From assembly GCA_963810275.1 (NCBI GenBank), contig CAWENF010000004.1, positions 1 to 64,000 of the forward strand: a stretch of DNA of 64,000 nucleotides, given 5' to 3'. Origin of the DNA: an uncultured archaeon. GTDB taxonomy: Archaea > Thermoproteota > Bathyarchaeia > Bathyarchaeales > Bathycorpusculaceae. Made by a program: the position numbers and the translations under genes. The notes below the pieces were generated by a model. The model did not search any database and was not told where the DNA came from. It saw only the letters and a program-made list of their open reading frames with translations. This document shows positions 2,660 through 22,419 of the stretch, piece after piece. The first letter of the stretch is position 1, and every line of letters starts with the position of its first letter.

Positions 2660-3037
2660 TTAGACTCGAAAAATTGTTTCCATAAGGATTTTGATTCTAT
2701 CGTGATTGTTTAGGATTGTTTGGATTGTTTTTCTACCTTTTTGAGTAAGCTTATAGACTCTTTTACGTTCCACCCAGGCGCCTTCGACAAGGTGGTTGCG
2801 TTCAAGCGAGTAGAGCAGTGAGTAAACGGTTCCAGAACTTACTAAGAAGCCGAATTTGTTGTGGATGTAGCTGATTACTTCGTAGCCGCTTATGGGGTCG
2901 TGTTGGAGTTTAGCCATGATTATTGTGTCTAGGAAGCTTTTAATGACTCTTTCATGCGTTTTTTTGATTATTCTGCCTTCTGATTTTTCTCCGTTTACGG
3001 TTATGGTTAATGCAACCACTTTTACGCGCCTAGTCAT
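2660..3037 (-). CDS. PadR family transcriptional regulator
   Basis: ISGYEVISYIHNKFGFLVSSGTVYSLLYSLERNHLVEG..RKRVYKLTQKG. Confidence 0.9.
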   Translation of the reverse strand: MTRRVKVVALTITVNGEKSEGRIIKKTHERVIKSFLDTIIMAKLQHDPISGYEVISYIHNKFGFLVSSGTVYSLLYSLERNHLVEGAWVERKRVYKLTQKGRKTIQTILNNHDRIKILMETIFRV

Positions 3038-6329: not shown

Positions 6330-7941
6330 TTAGTAATCCAAGATTTTTTTAACAGCGTCGTTTTCCACTTCGTTAGCCAACGCTATACCTGTCACTTGCT
6401 GGGCAAGGATGCTTAAACTCATAAGGTCCCCTCTGTTCAGCAAGTTAAGGTTCCATTTGCGGTTGCCAGCCATTAACTGTTTCAAACCAACGCCAATCCT
6501 GTCTGTTAAATAGGTGTAGACGCCGATACTTTCCAGCGGAATCTCGCTGAATTGTTCACCATATTTAGCTTTAAGCTCCGGTGCTGCAATGAAGAATTTT
6601 TCTGGAGTTTCTCCGAATTTTGCTGCAAACTGGCGCGGCAATTTTCCATCAGCTGCAAGCCGTTTGAAGTATGCTGCTTTCATTGCTGCCGTGATTGGTG
6701 AGCGACCCATCAGAACAGCTTTAACCAGTGGACCGTTTCCAAAGTTGCTTAAAGCGATGGTTTTAAAGATGCTTGTTTCTTCAATGAAACCGCCTGCCAT
6801 AATCAAGTCAGGAACGTGTTTTCCTTTGCTTTTAAGTATCTGTGCACATTGCAGTACTAATGCTTGCAAGTATACTGTTGGGATACTCATTTCATCCATC
6901 ATGGGAACTGGACTCATGCCTGTTCCGCCGCCTGCTCCGTCAAAACTTAACGCGTCGATTTTTGCTTCAGAGGCAAATTTCATTGTGTATGCGACAGCTG
7001 AGGGGCGGTACGCGCCGGTTTTTAGGAAAACCTTTTTTGCACCTTGTTTACGTAGCCACTCAATGTCTTCTATGAAGGATTTTTCTTTTGGTATGCCGAC
7101 TCTACTGTGACGTTCAAAGGTGTGGAATACGCCGTCGCGGAAACGCTTGCTGTATTACTGGGTCTTCGGGGTCGGGGATTACTATGTAGCCACGTTTTTT
7201 GAGTAGAATGGCTTTCTGAAGGTCTTTGAGGCGAACTTCTCCGCCTATGGCTTTGGCTCCTTGCCCCCACTTGCGCTCTATGACGTTTACTTCTAGCTTT
7301 GATAGAGCATAAGTATCTATGCCAAGTCGTTGGTCTTCGACATTTGTCTGTACGATAACCTCCCCATTTTTTTTATCCCAGAACTTTCTAAAACAGTCAA
7401 TTCTTCGTTTAAGCTCTGGTGAATGGGTTAGTTTTTCATTTGTACATGATGCTTCAACATCCATACCTGCAATGTTTTCACCTATAATGATTGATACGCC
7501 GGCAAGTGCTGCTCCAACCGCTAATCCTTCCCAGTTTACGCGCGCTACTTCTGTTGAGCCGAAAGCGCCTGTTAGGATTGGGAGTTTATGCGGAACACCG
7601 CCCACAACTGTTTCTGTGTTTGCATTTGGAAATATGGCATCTTCAGAGGTTTCCGGTATTCCTTGGGCTTCTAAGAGGCCTGCTTGTATGTTGAAATGGG
7701 ACCAGTCTAACCCGAAGTCTTTGAGGGCTCCTGCGGTGCTTGTTCCGAATTGTTCTGGTTCTGGGTAGAGGGCTTCTCTGCCTCTGAATGCGGATAGGCT
7801 GATTTCGCAGAGTACTGGGCAATCGTGTATGCAGATTGGGCACATGCCGCTTAGAGTGCTTGTGTCTTTGACTCGCGTGTTTGTTCCTACGGTTGATTTC
7901 CCGTTTAGGTATGAACTATTTTTTTGTGTTCTTTCACTCAT
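6330..7941 (-). CDS. FMN-binding glutamate synthase family protein (one frameshift near 7139)
   Basis: SGMCPICIHDCPVLCE, ERKWGQGAKAIGGE, LKTGAYRP and DGAGGGTGMSP motifs. The two ORFs join after removing one base. Confidence 0.85.
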
Positions 7942-14700: not shown

Positions 14701-15266
14701 GTGCAAACTAAAAAATATCAAACCCATAAACCCAACCGACTAAACTAGTTTTTTGAACCCCCTTTTAGAAACCCAAGAATCTTGGCTGAAATGGCAATCT
14801 TCACCGCGTTGGCCACAACATTAAGCTATAATTGTTTATCATGTAATGCCTCAAGGTGGCTCAATCACATTCGCTTCAATGGTTCCAATCATTTGGTTGG
14901 CGCTGCGAAGAGGCCCAAAAGTCGGAGTTACTCGCGGTGCTCTATGGATGCATCCAGTTCATAATTTTGCCCTATGCCATTGCTCCATTGCAGAGTGTTG
15001 TTGGATTACCTGTTGGCGTTTGGTGTCTTGGGGTTAGCTGGTTTTTTCCGAAAATACCCTGTCTCGGCGCCGCAGTAGCTGTATGCAAGTTTTGTCCTGA
15101 GCTTCATTTCAGGTGCGTCAACTGGGCGCCAATATATGCTCCAGACATTGACCCCTACATTTACTCCTCAGTTTACAACGGAAGCTACATGGTGCCTGAA
15201 CTTATCATAACCGTATTCGTAGTCTTCCTGCTTCAGGCAAGTAAAGCGTTGAGGGCTTATCTTTAA
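14701..15266 (+). CDS. thiT: Energy-coupled thiamine transporter ThiT (several frameshifts)
   Basis: ILAEMAIFTALA, MPQGGSITFASMVPI, LLDYLLAFGVLGLAG and YSSVYNGSYMVPE are spread across frames. Confidence 0.85.
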
Positions 15267-16264
15267 TGGGTAAACTCGCCGCTGAAGACCTGCAGAAAAT
15301 GCTCAAATGCATCAAATCCGACGAGAGGGTGTTGGTGCCGCCTATGATTGGCTATGACTAGGGGTTCACCGCATGCGAACATTATCTGGTTGTTGCCTCA
15401 GACCCCTGCACAGGCGTCCCTGAAGACTGGTTCGGCTGGCTCCTCATTAACTACGCCGCATCCGACTTGGCGCTTTCAGGCGCTAAACCAGAATTCTGCA
15501 CAATCACCCTGATAGGTCCATCCCCCACCGAACCCGACCGCTTCCAAAAAGTGATGACGCAAACCTGCGAGCGCAGCAGACGAGCTGGGCATCGCCATAG
15601 TTCGCGGGCACACAGGTATGTACGACAGCCTAAACGATTTGTTGGGCGTCTGCACCGTCTACGGCACTGTTGAGGCAAGGGCGGTTGATTACTTCTGGTG
15701 GCGCAAAGGCCGGAGACCTGATTTTGTGCACTAAAGCCCCTTGGCATAGAAACTATCACAAACTACGCTCTTGCCCACCTGAGTTGGCATAAAAGCTTTT
15801 TGGTGCGGCAAAACACTGCAGAATATTCACGTCTTGTCGCTATGCAGAGCTGCGTAAAGGAGGCACAAACACTGACGCAAATCAATGGTGTGCATGCAAT
15901 GCATGACGCAACCGAAGGAGGTTTTGTATCAGCGTTAAACGAATTGGCGGTGCATCCGGGGTCGGGGTTGAAAGTGGAGTGGGAAAAAATCCCTATCCCT
16001 CAAGAAGCGTTGACGTTACAGCATCACTTCAGCCTCAGCGATGAGCAGTTGCTTTCGATGTCTTCCACCGGCACCATTCTTGGTGCAGTTAATCCCGAAG
16101 CAAAAACCAAAGTCGCTCAAACGCTTGAAAAACTCGGTTTAACTGCATACTTCATCGGCGAATTCAAAAAAGAAAAACAAAACCTGCTCATTATAGGCGG
16201 AGCGAAATAGGCTTTTCCATCCGCAGCCGACGACCCATACACTGCAATGATGGCTACTTCTTAA
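15266..16264 (+). CDS. AIR synthase (PurM/ThiL/HypE-fold) family protein (frameshifts and one in-frame TAG)
   Basis: MGKLAAEDL..PPMIGYD, SDPCTG, NYAASDLALSGA, GHTG, AMHDATEGG, STGT. Start overlaps the thiT stop (TAATG). Confidence 0.8.
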
Positions 16265-17714: not shown

Positions 17715-17949
17715 GAAGAATAATCTGCCAACTCAACACATATTAACGTTTCACGTGGTTTAGGGTACGTTGGGGGTTGGTTCAGTTCCGTGGGCTTGAT
17801 GGGTTTTGGCGGCTTAGTGGCTGTATTTCTTGTTTGGCTTCGCATGACCATCAATCGACTTGACAACTTGGCTTATGGTCCTTTTCAAAAACTCATTTAA
17901 TAGATCTAGAAAATAGAGGGTACAACAAATTCAGGAAGAGAGAAAAAAA

Positions 17950-19236
17950 TTGAAAACCAAAATCCTTGGAAAATCAGTACACACGCTATAGACAAAGAAA
18001 GTCTCTAAACCCATTGTGGCGTGCTTAACCATGCTGTTTTTGGTCAGCACGGTTTCTGTGCTTGCCTTTAGAGAGACAGCACAAGGTACAACGACCTTGG
18101 CTCTGCACACGCATTCAGCTGGCAAGGTCTTCCAGGCATGAGCTGGGACAGTAAACCTCAAAGATTCCTCAACGATAACGGGTACGGAAATAACGAAATG
18201 GAATTCTGGAACTGGTTCTGGACCGACATGGCCACTAATCTCAAAGACTGCCCCAACGTAATCTTTGAAGCATGGAACGAACCAGGCTGGAACGGCGATG
18301 ACACCGAACCCATCCCCGCAGGATAAATGACTTACTTACAAACCATGTACAACGCAATTCGCAACAATGCAGATTCAAACAACATCATCATGATGCAGTG
18401 GAGAATGGGGTGACAACCAAACGGCTACGGCGCAACACTAAGCTGGGCATCAGACATCAACAATGCTATTCAACTAACTAACCTCGTCTACACCACATAC
18501 TTCTACTAATACGCGCCCACCGACCTAAGCGACTACTGGGCAAAAGATTACGCAACCCTGAAATCGCAGATTCAAACAGCCATAAACGGCATGGGAGTCA
18601 CTGCACCTCTTGTCATTAACGAGGAAGGCTCATGCCTAACCATCTCGCCAAACAAGCAAAACGACTTGACTTGGTGGACAAACCTCGAGTTGGTTCAACG
18701 TGACCCTTAACGTCGGCGCAGGCGCCTACTACTGGCTTTCCGACAGCGGTTTTGGCGGCGTTTACAATGGCGAATCCCATCTAAGCAGCGATTACAGCCC
18801 CAACGCTATGGGACAAGCCTAAATAAATGCATACAATGGAGCCACCAGAAACATTCCAACGCCAACAGCTACTCCTTCACTTGCTCCTCAGGAGAAAGCT
18901 ACGGCGATACCTGCCCCAACGGTTACACCTACAACACCTACAACTGCACCAACCGCTATGCCAACAATAACTCCGACACAAACCACCCAATCCTAACCCC
19001 AATTCAAAAGCCAACCACACAGCCAACACCCGACCAAACCCAAACATCCTCCCGGACATCCCAACCTTCAGTAAACCCAACCCCAACATAGGGCACCACC
19101 TACTCTGAGGACGCTACATCGCTACATTCACTCCTGTACCAACAGAAAAAGCTCCTAATCGAACATCCTTCTGGCACAGATGGTTCTGTGGTTTGGTTGG
19201 CCACATTTCCATGTTTGGTTCAACCAATTCTACTAA
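17950..19236 (+). pseudogene. Secreted GH5-like glycoside hydrolase pseudogene with a Pro/Thr linker
   Basis: Signal peptide, PNVIFEAWNEP (acid/base) and PLVINEEG (nucleophile). Multiple in-frame stops, frameshifts and an apparent internal deletion. Confidence 0.8.
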
Positions 19237-19277: not shown

Positions 19278-19316
19278 GTAAAACATAAAGCAGACCCGTA
19301 ATACAAATGTAATACA
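19278..19316 (+). promoter_or_regulatory. GTAATACA direct repeats (putative RHH operator)
   Basis: GTAAAACA 19278-19285, GTAATACA 19298-19305 and 19309-19316 (11-bp period), just before the TTG start at 19327. Confidence 0.6.
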
Positions 19317-19326
19317 GTGAACAATT

Positions 19327-20256
19327 TTGGATATCATAAACGTCCGTTTACCCGACAAAGTCATATGGGAAGTAGATAAACTCGCCAAGAAACATGAATT
19401 AACCCGCTCCGAAGTCATGCGCCAAGCCCTAACCATCTATCTGCATTTAATAGAAAACGTCGGTAGCCTACTCCGACCAATAGCCTTCCAAGTCAAACCA
19501 GCACAACTCTCATACATGCGTAGGGGCGATGTTTCCATCATCAAACTTCCTACGGGCCACGCCATTGTTTCAGGTTCTACTTCCTCAGGTGCAGTTGGTC
19601 CTAAAGAACTTGACCAAGTCAAAGTAGACGGCAAAATACTTGGCAAGTTTCTGGCGCGGGTTGCATTGATGGATGTGGCGGCAACGGGTGCTTTCCCAGT
19701 TCAACTTTCATTAACGTTGGGTGTGGAGAAGGAACCCACAGGCAATCAGATAATTGAAGGCATCAGCCGCGAAGCCCGAACCATAGGTCTAGACCCCAAC
19801 ATGGTGTTGCTGGAAAACACCGAGGACAACTTCCAAACATGCCAAACCGGTGTAGGTTTAACCGTGGTGGGCTTAGCAAACGAGGATGAACTCCGCATCG
19901 GCAAAACCTTGCCCGGTGACTTGATTGTAGCAGTTGGTAGGCCCAAAGTCGGCCAAGAAGTAATTGCAGCGGAGGCACACGGCGAAATTGCTGACCTAAA
20001 AAATATCTCCCAACTCGCCCAGCGAAAATACGTCCACGATATTGCAGCAGTAGGGGGGTTTGGCATCGCCAGCGAGGCAAAGATGATGGCTTACGGCGTC
20101 GGCAGGCAAGCAAAACTATTGGATGTAGCGGGGTTGGATTCGGCTAAAACGGCGGGTCCGGCAACCGTAGTGTTAGTGACAATTGATAGAGAGCGGCTGG
20201 AAGATTTAGAGGCGCTTATCCCAAAACCAATCAACGTGGTGGGTGAAATACTCTAA
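19327..20256 (+). CDS. Fusion of an RHH DNA-binding domain and a CblS (alpha-ribazole kinase)-like AIR-synthase-fold domain
   Basis: N-terminal IINVRLPDKVIWEVDKLAKKHELTRSEVMRQAL, then SSGAVGPKELD, ARVALMD, TEDNFQTCQTGVG, GRPKVG, KTAGPAT. Confidence 0.8.
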   Translation: MDIINVRLPDKVIWEVDKLAKKHELTRSEVMRQALTIYLHLIENVGSLLRPIAFQVKPAQLSYMRRGDVSIIKLPTGHAIVSGSTSSGAVGPKELDQVKVDGKILGKFLARVALMDVAATGAFPVQLSLTLGVEKEPTGNQIIEGISREARTIGLDPNMVLLENTEDNFQTCQTGVGLTVVGLANEDELRIGKTLPGDLIVAVGRPKVGQEVIAAEAHGEIADLKNISQLAQRKYVHDIAAVGGFGIASEAKMMAYGVGRQAKLLDVAGLDSAKTAGPATVVLVTIDRERLEDLEALIPKPINVVGEIL

Positions 20257-20732
20257 GCCACATGTTTATCCAGAAGGTGTCCGTTGCGGTCGATTTCGCC
20301 TCTACGAATCCGCGTCGTGGAAATCGGGCGGTGATTCTCTGCTGGAACCAAAGCGACCGTGACTATTTTCAGCTTTGCAACCTGTGCCTGTTGACGTTTT
20401 TGGTTTATGGCCTCGCCCACATGTGCAGTTTCTTCACTAACAACTAATGCGTCAAAGTTTTTTGTCATCATCAACCCCAACGGGTCGTTTAGTGGGACAA
20501 TCTCTGCTCTTTGGTCCAAGCGCTGATCTTTTAAGTAAACCTCTAGGTCCCGCCTGCGTTGACTGTACGAGGCGGTTTTGTGAGGTTTACCCATTTGGGC
20601 CACGAACTCGTCTGAAGTTAAGCCGATGACGACTTTTTCTCCCACTTCAAAAGCTTTTCCTAAGAGGGCTCTGTGTCCCCTATGCAGTTGGTCGAAAGTT
20701 CCGCCGACAGCCACTTTTTTGAATCTCGTCAT
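20253..20732 (-). CDS. coaD: Phosphopantetheine adenylyltransferase (archaeal type)
   Basis: VGGTFDQLHRGH, LVVSEET, ISTTRIRRGEID. Confidence 0.92.
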   Translation of the reverse strand: MTRFKKVAVGGTFDQLHRGHRALLGKAFEVGEKVVIGLTSDEFVAQMGKPHKTASYSQRRRDLEVYLKDQRLDQRAEIVPLNDPLGLMMTKNFDALVVSEETAHVGEAINQKRQQAQVAKLKIVTVALVPAENHRPISTTRIRRGEIDRNGHLLDKHVA

Positions 20733-21661
20733 TTTATCAGTCTAGCGCCCTGGAAATCAATTCTGCTGTTAAACACTTGTTCTTTTGGCAGTATCTGCTT
20801 AAAAGCTTCCTCCACCCCGTATGCATGTTGCTCATGTACAACAGCATGCACTGCCTCGCCAATCATATTCTGAGCGGCACCAACCGCACCTGCCTGCTCG
20901 GCGGCTTTTATGAGTTTGCGGACGTTTTCTGTGGAGTATCCTGACTTCTCCGAAAACAGTTTGCACTGCGCTAAAAAATTCTCCAAAATAGGCTTAGTCA
21001 AAATTGCTCCGAGAGTTTTTTTGCCTTCACAGTTGATTTTTTCTTTTTTCTCGGGTGAGGTGAATACGGGTTTTTTTGGGATAAGTGAGGGGCAGTAGCC
21101 GATCACCATTACGAGGCTTGGTGATATGGGGATGCGGTCTGTTTTGCAGAATCCGGGTGCTCCGGGTTTGGTTACGAGGATGAGACCGCTTCCAGAAGTT
21201 AGCGAGCTGACTGTGCCCAGTCCTGTTTGGCACTGTATTTCAGCAACGTGGGCAGCTTGTCCAATTTGGTTGTAAGTCAGCGGCAAATTTGTGGCTTCTT
21301 TGAGCGCTAACCCAGCTGTTAGAGCGCCGCCTGCACTGGTTCCGAAACCCATGCCAATGGGCACCTCGATTTGGTGCTCAACTTTGACAGTGTAATTTTC
21401 GTCGGTTTTATCGAGAAGTGTTTTTATGATGTGCCTGGTGGTTTTAGCTTGAGTTGTTTTTCCGTTAATCCATACCGAAACAGAGTTCTTTTTTGTTTCT
21501 TCGACTGTGACAGTAGTGTAAACTCCTCTCTCGAGGCCGAAGCCGCCACCGATTGAACCCATCCTGTTCAAGTCTGCTATTGGATTGCCTGCTTTGGAGT
21601 CGTGGATTTGAAAAAAGCTGGAGATAGCTCCTGGTGCAAATGCTTTTGCGCTTTTTATCAC
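20729..21661 (-). CDS. pok: Pantoate kinase (GHMP family)
   Basis: AFAPGAISSFF, GSIGGG, PIGMGFGTSAG, AHVAEI..TGLGTV, AQNMIGEAV. Confidence 0.88.
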   Translation of the reverse strand: MIKSAKAFAPGAISSFFQIHDSKAGNPIADLNRMGSIGGGFGLERGVYTTVTVEETKKNSVSVWINGKTTQAKTTRHIIKTLLDKTDENYTVKVEHQIEVPIGMGFGTSAGGALTAGLALKEATNLPLTYNQIGQAAHVAEIQCQTGLGTVSSLTSGSGLILVTKPGAPGFCKTDRIPISPSLVMVIGYCPSLIPKKPVFTSPEKKEKINCEGKKTLGAILTKPILENFLAQCKLFSEKSGYSTENVRKLIKAAEQAGAVGAAQNMIGEAVHAVVHEQHAYGVEEAFKQILPKEQVFNSRIDFQGARLIK

Positions 21662-22419
21662 AGTTTTTCACTTATTCGGGGATTCAGACTGGTGCTATTC
21701 CTTAAACTAGGAAACGCCCTGTAACATGCTTTTATAATTGGTGGTCCTGCAAGAAGCACAAATGGGACTTCTGTGGCAAATGTCCAAACGAATAGTGGGA
21801 TAATGTATATTGCTGCAAAAGGCGCTCCGAAGTAGTTAAGGAAGAATGGACTGACCGCCCAGACAGTTACAGAGAGCAAAGCTGCGCCTACAAGTTGGCC
21901 GAGTACAGCGCCTATGGCGTAACTTCTCCATTCTTTGTATCGGATGGATACTGCTGCTATTACTGTAAGGCTTAAGACGATTGTTAATACAAAAGTTAGC
22001 AGAAATGCTTCAGAGGATAACCCCGTGAAAGCGACGAAGTCAGGGAGAAAAACTATTGCTGGAACAAGTAAGCCAATTGCAGCGATTGTTACGCCTATTA
22101 GGGCTTTTTTTAGGCTGATGTTTCTACATGCTATGTAGCCGATTAAAAAGAACACGATAAAGTTTGCCGGTACCCCTGCAGATAGGCTTAAGGCGGGGAT
22201 GCCGTGGATAGCCATGTCCCGTATGAAGATGCCGATTGCCGCGCTTAGTCCGCCGACCCATGGGCCGTAGAGCACGGCGAAAACGGCTGGTATCACTACA
22301 GCGGGCAGAAAGCCGACTCCTAAGAAATTGAATCCTGCAGTTAATATTCCAAATGCAGCGTAAAGTGCTGCGCTGATTGCTATGACAACTATATCGAATG
22401 TTTTGAAGTGAGTGTTCAA
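21658..22419 (-). CDS. ECF transporter S-component
   Basis: IAISAALYAA, PAVVIPAVFAVLYGPWVGGLSAAIG; multi-TM; first gene of the CoA operon. Confidence 0.8.
   Translation of the reverse strand: MNTHFKTFDIVVIAISAALYAAFGILTAGFNFLGVGFLPAVVIPAVFAVLYGPWVGGLSAAIGIFIRDMAIHGIPALSLSAGVPANFIVFFLIGYIACRNISLKKALIGVTIAAIGLLVPAIVFLPDFVAFTGLSSEAFLLTFVLTIVLSLTVIAAVSIRYKEWRSYAIGAVLGQLVGAALLSVTVWAVSPFFLNYFGAPFAAIYIIPLFVWTFATEVPFVLLAGPPIIKACYRAFPSLRNSTSLNPRISEKL

Follow-up and report, generated by a model that had tools for sequence, protein, structure and literature searches.

What is a DNA-binding domain doing at the front of a protein that otherwise resembles a kinase of vitamin B12 salvage? This question is raised by a gene at 19327..20256 (+) in a stretch of 64,000 nucleotides (nt), hereafter the window, from an uncultured archaeon of the Bathyarchaeia, family Bathycorpusculaceae (assembly GCA_963810275.1, contig CAWENF010000004.1, positions 1 to 64,000). 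The gene is an intact open reading frame (ORF) that encodes 309 amino acids (aa), with a TTG start and with the stop codon included in the coordinates. A sequence-only reading of the locus had proposed a regulator built from a kinase, and the comparison of genomes described here points the same way: with a probability of about 0.7, the protein is an autoregulated one-component transcription factor for the supply of the cobamide lower ligand, in which a pseudokinase serves as the sensor, and its ligand is probably alpha-ribazole or the phosphate of it. The observations that carry this answer are the architecture of the protein, the loss of a kinase motif, the conservation of an operator, and the genes with which the regulator co-occurs and to which it is linked.

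A kinase-like domain joined to a ribbon-helix-helix

The protein is made of two parts. At the N-terminus, aa 4-39 (19336..19443, +) form a ribbon-helix-helix (RHH) DNA-binding domain, recognised by the Pfam family RHH_1 (PF01402, E 7.3e-7, 29.4 bits with a cut-off of 20.5). A flexible linker follows at aa 46-60 (19462..19506, +), and the rest of the chain, aa 61-309 (19507..20253, +), is a CblS-like domain of the PurM superfamily, the proposed ligand sensor, with 30-50% identity to stand-alone proteins of about 250 aa; within it, the AIRS N-terminal domain PF00586 scores 32.6 bits at aa 71-155 (cut-off 24). Both domains being above their cut-offs, the union of an RHH with an alpha-ribazole-kinase-like domain, claimed from the sequence alone, is borne out. 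The span given for this feature, 19278..20256, holds the gene, although the ORF itself starts at 19327 and the first part of the span is promoter. NCBIfam has no specific model for the protein and returns weak ThiL and SelD similarities only.

The AlphaFold2 model, computed from a 59-sequence alignment, has a mean predicted local distance difference test (pLDDT) of 94.8 and a predicted template modelling score (pTM) of 0.83. It shows two N-terminal helices (residues 10-22 and 27-45, pLDDT 88-97), the linker at low confidence (blocks at pLDDT 60 and 73, and values under 50 for residues 49-51) and a compact PurM-like body. The N-terminus of the RHH is extended in this monomer, and its strand is unassigned there, since it needs a partner chain. 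Foldseek against the PDB ranks SelD first (3u0o, 8e-15), followed by PurL, ThiL, PurM and HypE down to about 1e-11, with TM-scores of 0.5-0.6. Sequence searches of the PDB were less informative: the single protein gave nothing relevant, a profile gave at best an E-value of 0.007, to PurM, and the RHH alone gave, a designed protein excepted, weak RHH matches with E-values of at least 0.28.

Which kinase does the C-terminal domain resemble? In Firmicutes, CblT is described as a transporter and CblS as an alpha-ribazole kinase (PMC6167548; PMC6461909). An exhaustive profile-free search for the CblS-type domain gathered 465 representatives, mostly stand-alone proteins of about 250 aa and a few RHH-fused ones. 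The stand-alone representatives match aa 65-308 of the regulator at 30-50% identity, with E-values down to 1e-53. NCBI and UniRef give the members from Firmicutes the name alpha-ribazole kinase; others are called AIR synthase related protein or selenophosphate synthase. Neither Pfam nor NCBIfam holds a curated CblS model.

Is the fused domain still a kinase? The stand-alone proteins share the consensus motifs ACDSxGGIGxK, GSTEEN, PVGSKGI and KSAGP. Compared with them, the regulator has GSTSSG for ACDSxG, ENTEDN for GSTEEN (with E166 kept) and AVGGFG for PVGSKG; these are the three changes that the sequence-only reading had noted, and the consensus it used agrees with the stand-alone family exactly. 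When 33 stand-alone proteins are aligned with 18 RHH-fused ones, the Asp of ACDSxG is present in 33/33 of the former and 0/18 of the latter, and in the window protein its place is taken by Thr85 (codon 19579..19581, +). Of the 35 positions that at least 90% of the 33 kinases conserve, the 18 fused forms have lost four: C84, D85, E116 and S164, the last being found in 0/18. Position 116, which is Glu in 33/33 stand-alone kinases and mostly Asp in the fused forms, opens the stretch DVAATGAFP (D116-P124; 19672..19698, +, read from the translation), which is the DX4GAXP signature of the PurM superfamily. The Lys of PVGSKG is variable among stand-alone members too. Most other kinase-conserved positions are kept in the fused forms, including S86, G88, G91, K93, D96, E166, T174 and G277-P278.

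What the lost Asp would do can be approached by way of ThiL. In the PurM superfamily a second Asp ligates Mg-ATP. In a profile alignment (hhalign) to the ThiL of the same genome, with a probability of only 43.6%, D68 of the regulator falls on the GDD loop and T85 on the Asp of the kTDm strand. The GDD loop of ThiL contacts the ribose-phosphate of ADP (PMC6416309).

A maximum-likelihood tree of 50 domains, from which the truncated protein P0198 was left out, puts the 17 fused rows on one side of a branch with support 99/94, which is compatible with a single fusion event. The fused regulator is probably an inactivated copy of the kinase, and the loss of the presumed catalytic Asp, suspected from one sequence, has been confirmed by the alignment of the family; the pseudokinase that had been offered as a possibility can now be called probable.

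Could the protein nevertheless be an enzyme and a regulator at once, its RHH acting on transcription and its C-terminal domain still phosphorylating alpha-ribazole or a similar riboside? The many kinase-conserved positions that are kept would suit such a bifunctional protein. So would the lack of a stand-alone kinase in the genome of the window, as judged by tblastn, and in 7 of the 15 genomes of the family sample that have the regulator, where the kinase function might have to reside in the fused protein. Yet the Asp that no stand-alone kinase lacks is missing from every fused form, together with C84, E116 and S164, and the fused forms make up a single clade. Moreover, 10 genomes keep an intact kinase beside the fused gene and two others pair the fused gene with a PfkB kinase, an arrangement that looks like a division of labour. 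Bifunctionality is, on this evidence, quite unlikely.

A predicted operator at the regulator's own promoter

The other half of the question is what the RHH would bind. Directly before the gene, GTAATACA occurs at 19298-19305 and again at 19309-19316, that is, at an 11-bp period and at a distance of 29 to 12 nt from the start codon, in agreement with the tandem repeats described from the sequence alone. The core of GTAATACA is a 7-bp palindrome, GTAnTAC, so that the promoter has two boxes, both GTAATAC: box 1 at 19298..19304 and box 2 at 19309..19315, 11 bp after box 1, neither having a strand of its own. A TATA-like box, AAAACATAAA, was read by eye at 19280..19289 (+), and the operator is located between it and the start codon. 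In orthologous promoters an AAAgCATAAa / AAGGATAAGAG element is conserved, again as read by eye, at an equal distance before the start codon, and the start codon itself is ATG or TTG at the equivalent position.

How significant is this repeat? The bare GTAATACA is not: with a third copy at 7151 (-), the window has three against 1.18 expected, and three or more were obtained in 11 of 100 shuffles. The exact tandem pair occurs in the 2.26-Mb genome only at the regulator promoter, and one further site, on contig C3, differs from it by one mismatch. More telling is the comparison with other genomes. The regulator has 1210 homologs, and in the best 120 the identity, taken over the full length, is never below 78%. 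There were 43 orthologous loci, nearly all of them from metagenome-assembled genomes labelled Bathyarchaeota or Bathyarchaeia. A motif model made from the 43 promoters has the consensus nGTAnTACAAnTGTAnTACAGTG at about -30. When the operator is defined by at most two mismatches among 12 specified bases at 11-bp spacing, it is present in 23/43 orthologous promoters, as against 0/41 control windows and 0.4% of shuffles. The autoregulation proposed in the sequence-only reading is made likely by the place of the operator, after the TATA-like box and before the start codon, together with its conservation in orthologs.

It might be objected that there is no regulation here at all, and that the RHH is an antitoxin-like or structural appendage standing beside a repeat produced by chance. 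The RHH does have weak similarities to the HicB-like, VapB and RelB antitoxin families (E 0.002-0.05, Pfam and NCBIfam), and the count of GTAATACA in the window is, taken alone, not significant. However, the operator is conserved in position and in sequence across orthologs and distant clades, the gene has no toxin partner, and the identity of at least 78% among the best 120 of the 1210 homologs extends over the full-length protein. A protein without a regulatory role is hardly credible.

A candidate target in the same genome

The regulation of cobamide metabolism in archaea is poorly known, and we know of no archaea with the B12 riboswitches that regulate this metabolism in bacteria. In the genome of the window, which is 92.6% complete, no cobalamin riboswitch was found; the search was positive in 7 of 14 control genomes, all of them bacterial, with none of the four archaeal controls among them. 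The genome has two CobS genes, one CobT-like gene and 14 proteins with a B12-binding domain.

Which genes of this organism could be under the operator? A search of the whole genome with GTANTACNNNNGTANTAC, allowing at most one mismatch, found two places, the regulator promoter and C3:65229-65246. A control with the pattern reversed matched about as often, so it is the locations of the operator sites, and not their count, that carry weight. The site on C3 lies 50-70 nt upstream of the gene for a 193-aa membrane protein that belongs to no Pfam or NCBIfam family and agrees with the six-helix fold of the S-component of energy-coupling factor (ECF) transporters. None of its 489 homologs has a functional name: they are either unnamed or labelled as hypothetical or uncharacterized membrane protein. 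Nine orthologs of this transporter were found among 121 genomes sampled at the level of the order, and 9/9 have TGTATTACnnnTGTmTTACA, followed after about 10 bp by a conserved GCTTTTAT element.

The genomes in which the two genes occur add a further observation. Of 151 genomes sampled across the family, 15 have the regulator and 8 the transporter. Eight of the 15 have a stand-alone kinase 0.6-0.7 kb from the regulator on the opposite strand, and seven have none; the transporter is found in six of these seven, its other two occurrences being in G587 and G603. In this genome the search for the tandem motif, advised in the sequence-only reading, led beyond the regulator itself only to the transporter with the S-component fold, which is on another contig; the neighbours of the regulator in the window are coenzyme A (CoA) genes, not B12 genes.

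Two matters of detail may be recorded here. An ORF of 200 aa without a Pfam family lies 52 bp downstream of the transporter gene (L140 5946-6548 (-), equal to G000:C3 ~63.9-64.5 kb); it has an equivalent position in 6/9 ortholog loci, so that it may be co-transcribed with the transporter. In addition, the operator pattern has extra matches in G092 and G120, which were set aside as an unrelated operator or chance. These sites (L113 ~1035-1052, G092:C1; L114 ~1109-1126, G120:C6) read GTAsTAC-N4-GTAsTAC, stand directly before pairs of an AbrB-type antitoxin and a PIN-domain protein, and probably belong to toxin-antitoxin loci.

Gene linkage in relatives

In five related genomes (G017, locus L034, and G026, G018, G060 and G104) the regulator is divergent from an ECF S-component (ECF-S) gene (PF12822), after which comes an intact stand-alone kinase, and the operator is within the 80-90-bp gap between the divergent genes. 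Five further genomes have the regulator and the kinase at the same spacing. The ECF-S neighbours of the fused gene were typed by PF12822, and are called CblT-like on this basis and not by comparison to a characterised CblT; the genome of the window shows no such pairing. In G590, from a sister genus, the regulator is accompanied by the operator together with GGCTTTTAT, then by an archaeal cobT and then by the 193-aa transporter; this cobT is 60% identical (E 6e-170) to the CobT-like ORF of the window's genome, which precedes CobS.

A basal clade of fused proteins from metagenomes, the P0124 clade, has a regulator that is 42% identical. Here the regulator is divergent from a peptide gene, a gene for CbpB, a radical SAM/SPASM protein (TIGR04163, 553.6 bits), and a bacterial-type cobT (TIGR03160, 457.6 bits), with GTATTACatatGTAATGC between the regulator and the divergent peptide-CbpB-cobT genes. 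In G084, which belongs to the window's own genus, an exact operator is upstream of a homologous pair of peptide and CbpB, 46% identical (E 5e-129). In G425 and G275 the fused gene is found with an ECF-S gene and a PfkB-family kinase, and the operator boxes of G275 take the form GTAACACatttGTGTCAC. Finally, archaeal stand-alone kinases and their ECF-S partners adjoin genes of cobamide metabolism: CobY-like, CobS, CbiZ, CbiB and CobD genes in one locus (L104), BtuFCD-like genes in others (L105, L102).

The link to B12 salvage is in this way supported, since the operator stands at the transporter in 9/9 orthologs and, in relatives, at ECF-S and kinase genes, at cobT and the transporter, and at CbpB and cobT. 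The motif is present both at orthologous promoters and, in relatives, at cobamide promoters, the two places where the sequence-only reading had wanted it to be sought.

Some of the neighbours deserve a description of their own. The PfkB-family (ribokinase-like) kinases, at L108 4566-5480 (-) and L109 3278-3793 (-), come from two distant lineages with no stand-alone CblS-like kinase at the locus, and they may stand in for the riboside kinase by non-orthologous replacement. A protein of family PF01902 (Diphthami_syn_2, of the ATP-pyrophosphatase type) recurs by archaeal cobamide salvage genes and by one fused regulator (L104, L102, L108), and is seen by sequence likeness also in L103, L106, L107 and L111.

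The peptide that precedes CbpB (TIGR04163) is conserved, 26-50 aa long, and ends in ...GGL[TS]HY.M..D.SPF. Peptide and CbpB were located at L112/L133 (G084:C18 ~152.6-154.1 kb), L117 5740-5892 (-) and L134 ~2720-2800 (-). They are behind the regulator's operator in two distant lineages, G084 and the P0124 clade, and in the latter they are directly upstream of cobT; in G263 the pair has no evident operator pair. The CbpB enzyme was found in 3/401 genomes of the phylum.

Proposed mechanism

How might such a regulator work? We infer the following scheme from sequence, and this includes DNA binding, the oligomeric state, the ligand and the sign of regulation. A copy of an enzyme of the alpha-ribazole kinase type (CblS family) would have been fused to an RHH and would have lost the Asp of its metal/ATP site. 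RHH dimers would bind the two palindromic GTAnTAC boxes, which are one helical turn apart and would lie on one face of the DNA. Binding at the regulator's own promoter, where the operator follows the TATA-like box and precedes the start codon, should block initiation and result in autorepression. At the promoters of the transporter, of the cblT-like genes and of cobT, the operator module appears to be read from the other side, ending about 10 bp upstream of the TATA-like box; there it would adjoin the expected TFB-recognition element (BRE), and either occlusion or recruitment might follow. Divergent loci may make do with a single AT-rich element and a single operator for the two directions.

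What would the protein sense? The dead kinase domain plausibly still binds a riboside because most of the residues conserved in the family are kept, and the candidates are the substrate or the product of the kinase, alpha-ribazole or alpha-ribazole 5'-phosphate. The ligand would then adjust DNA binding to the amount of activated lower ligand available for building cobamides. Both regulated routes, cobT on the one hand and uptake plus kinase on the other, converge on alpha-ribazole phosphate, which for this reason is favoured, or else alpha-ribazole, as the feedback signal. Is the outcome repression or activation? Ligand-dependent feedback repression is the most likely logic, with activation at the transporter promoter as the alternative.

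A bolder extension, and a long shot, is that the regulator family governs a protein-based archaeal lower-ligand regulon, read via alpha-ribazole phosphate, in which cbpA-cbpB would make or tailor the lower-ligand base or a precursor of it. If this were true, cbpA-cbpB would be a peptide-derived route into the chemistry of the cobamide lower ligand.

The neighbourhood in the window and the question of the ligand

The neighbours of the gene in the window are not cobamide genes. Convergent to it, at 20253-22419 (-), is a CoA operon with pantetheine-phosphate adenylyltransferase (PPAT; NF001985, 183 bits), pantoate kinase and a 253-aa membrane protein resembling an ECF S-component.

Might the regulator then respond to something else, such as the lower-ligand base in free form, the whole cobamide, or a compound from elsewhere in metabolism, for example a CoA precursor? 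The CoA operon adjoins the gene in 37/43 loci, and this conserved synteny counts against an alpha-ribazole sensor. The regulated 193-aa transporter has no assigned substrate, the sequence search of the PDB gave no match for CblS, and the conservation of the ligand site is without a structural map. On the other side, the CoA genes share no promoter with the regulator, and operator scans of this genome found no operator at them. The synteny is absent from family f7, G425, G275 and the P0124 clade, where the regulator goes instead with ECF-S and kinase, with ECF-S and PfkB, or with CbpB and cobT. The genes being convergent, without an operator and missing in distant relatives, the CoA link was rejected and is taken as synteny only. 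Furthermore, the regulated routes, by cobT and by cblT plus kinase, would both yield alpha-ribazole phosphate according to established pathway knowledge. A transcription factor with another ligand is held to be fairly unlikely.

Other observations also weigh against a pseudokinase sensor of alpha-ribazole or its phosphate, and they concern first of all the names and the chemistry. The CblS identity of the family comes from database names; the catalytic role attributed to the lost Asp would follow from the weak profile alignment to ThiL and from what is known of active sites in the PurM superfamily. The 193-aa transporter has no detectable homology to the CblT-like ECF-S proteins by hhalign (probability 2.7%) and has been rejected as a homolog of them, and no neighbour of its gene in this genome has to do with cobamides.

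Another group of such points concerns the operator. Of the 43 regulator promoters, 20 have three or more mismatches at 11-bp spacing; among the degenerate ones are some GTrnCAC variants and some with 10-bp spacing. In a scan of the genome with the position weight matrix the regulator's own site alone stands out, at 27.6 bits, and the next, the transporter site, has 16.5 bits, compared with 18.7 for the top of the reversed-genome control. This motif-model scan was therefore judged insufficient alone to define the regulon, and since the score of the C3 site is within the noise, its assignment rests on the cross-genome conservation. Nor is the co-occurrence perfect: G587 and G603 (83% and 89% complete) have the transporter, with no regulator found and no operator upstream, and in G052, which has the regulator, the transporter was not found.

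Elsewhere in the window, at 14776-16255 (+), a gene for a ThiT-type thiamine S-component extends over three frames, and the PurM-like gene of the 332-aa type that adjoins it has several in-frame stops, as a result of either gene decay or assembly indel errors. In Bathycorpusculum (L030), intact ThiT-type and PurM-like genes are directly downstream of the regulator. The ORFs at 14.8-16.3 kb were considered as a second transporter-kinase pair and rejected, being a ThiT-type protein and a different PurM-like protein, both disrupted, with no CblS/CblT-like profile match. Upstream of the regulator, at ~17900-19100, there are short ORF fragments and a Thr/Pro-rich coding-like stretch; by eye, both look like parts of the glycoside-hydrolase-like protein of 699 aa, Thr/Pro-rich in its tail, whose gene stands before the regulator in L030.

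Comparison with known systems

Is this a new kind of regulator? Enzyme-derived sensor domains in vitamin regulators are already known. For the form with an RHH and a CblS-type domain no description was found: a literature search in full text, with supplements outside its scope, returned no RHH-CblS or RHH-AIR-synthase regulator, no protein regulator of archaeal cobamide lower-ligand genes, and nothing on TIGR04163. The family would be a concrete candidate for an archaeal cobamide regulator, for which an operator (a pair of GTAnTAC boxes at 11-bp spacing) and a set of targets are defined. It also points to unannotated genes as candidates for lower-ligand salvage, namely the 193-aa S-component family, the CbpAB peptide system and the PfkB kinases. 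Since sediments and soils are rich in Bathyarchaeia, their cobamide exchange is of ecological interest.

The closest relative is CblS itself. The C-terminal 245 aa of the regulator are homologous, at 30-50% identity, to the stand-alone family in which members from Firmicutes bear the name alpha-ribazole kinase and whose archaeal members pair with ECF-S and sit in cobamide clusters. Unlike them, the regulator has the added RHH, is without the motif Asp and without C84, E116 and S164, forms a separate clade, and is proposed to sense. It would be a natural example of how a kinase becomes a sensor, once its gene is duplicated, a DNA-binding domain is fused to the copy and one Asp of the active site is lost.

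Among regulators, the parallel is with ThiR and RbkR, archaeal vitamin regulators that are built on enzyme-derived domains and control transport and biosynthesis genes. As in those, a DNA-binding domain is joined to a homolog of a pathway enzyme, and the operator is at the regulator's own gene and at transport or biosynthesis genes; the regulator differs from both in its RHH, its PurM-like kinase domain and its connection to the cobamide lower ligand, and it is a member of neither family. By its order of domains it also recalls regulators of the NikR type, in which an N-terminal RHH is followed by a larger C-terminal domain that can oligomerise and bind a small ligand, and whose operators have two spaced sites. 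The analogy extends to the two-site operator and to the N-terminal RHH before a larger domain, whereas the C-terminal domain is here a PurM-like pseudoenzyme instead of a metal-binding one, and the boxes are 11 bp apart.

A PurM-superfamily protein in a DNA-bound transcription complex has a precedent in SEPHS1 of the Zincore complex on DNA (PDB 9hjt), which was met at Foldseek rank 36 and whose role is taken from the title of the entry only; SEPHS1 differs in being eukaryotic and in having no fused DNA-binding domain.

With regard to physiology, the counterpart is the cobalamin riboswitch (RF00174), which exerts feedback control on cobamide transport and synthesis genes in bacteria. The job proposed for the archaeal regulator is the same, and the means are different: the riboswitch is made of RNA and senses the finished cofactor, whereas the regulator is a protein that would sense alpha-ribazole or its phosphate.

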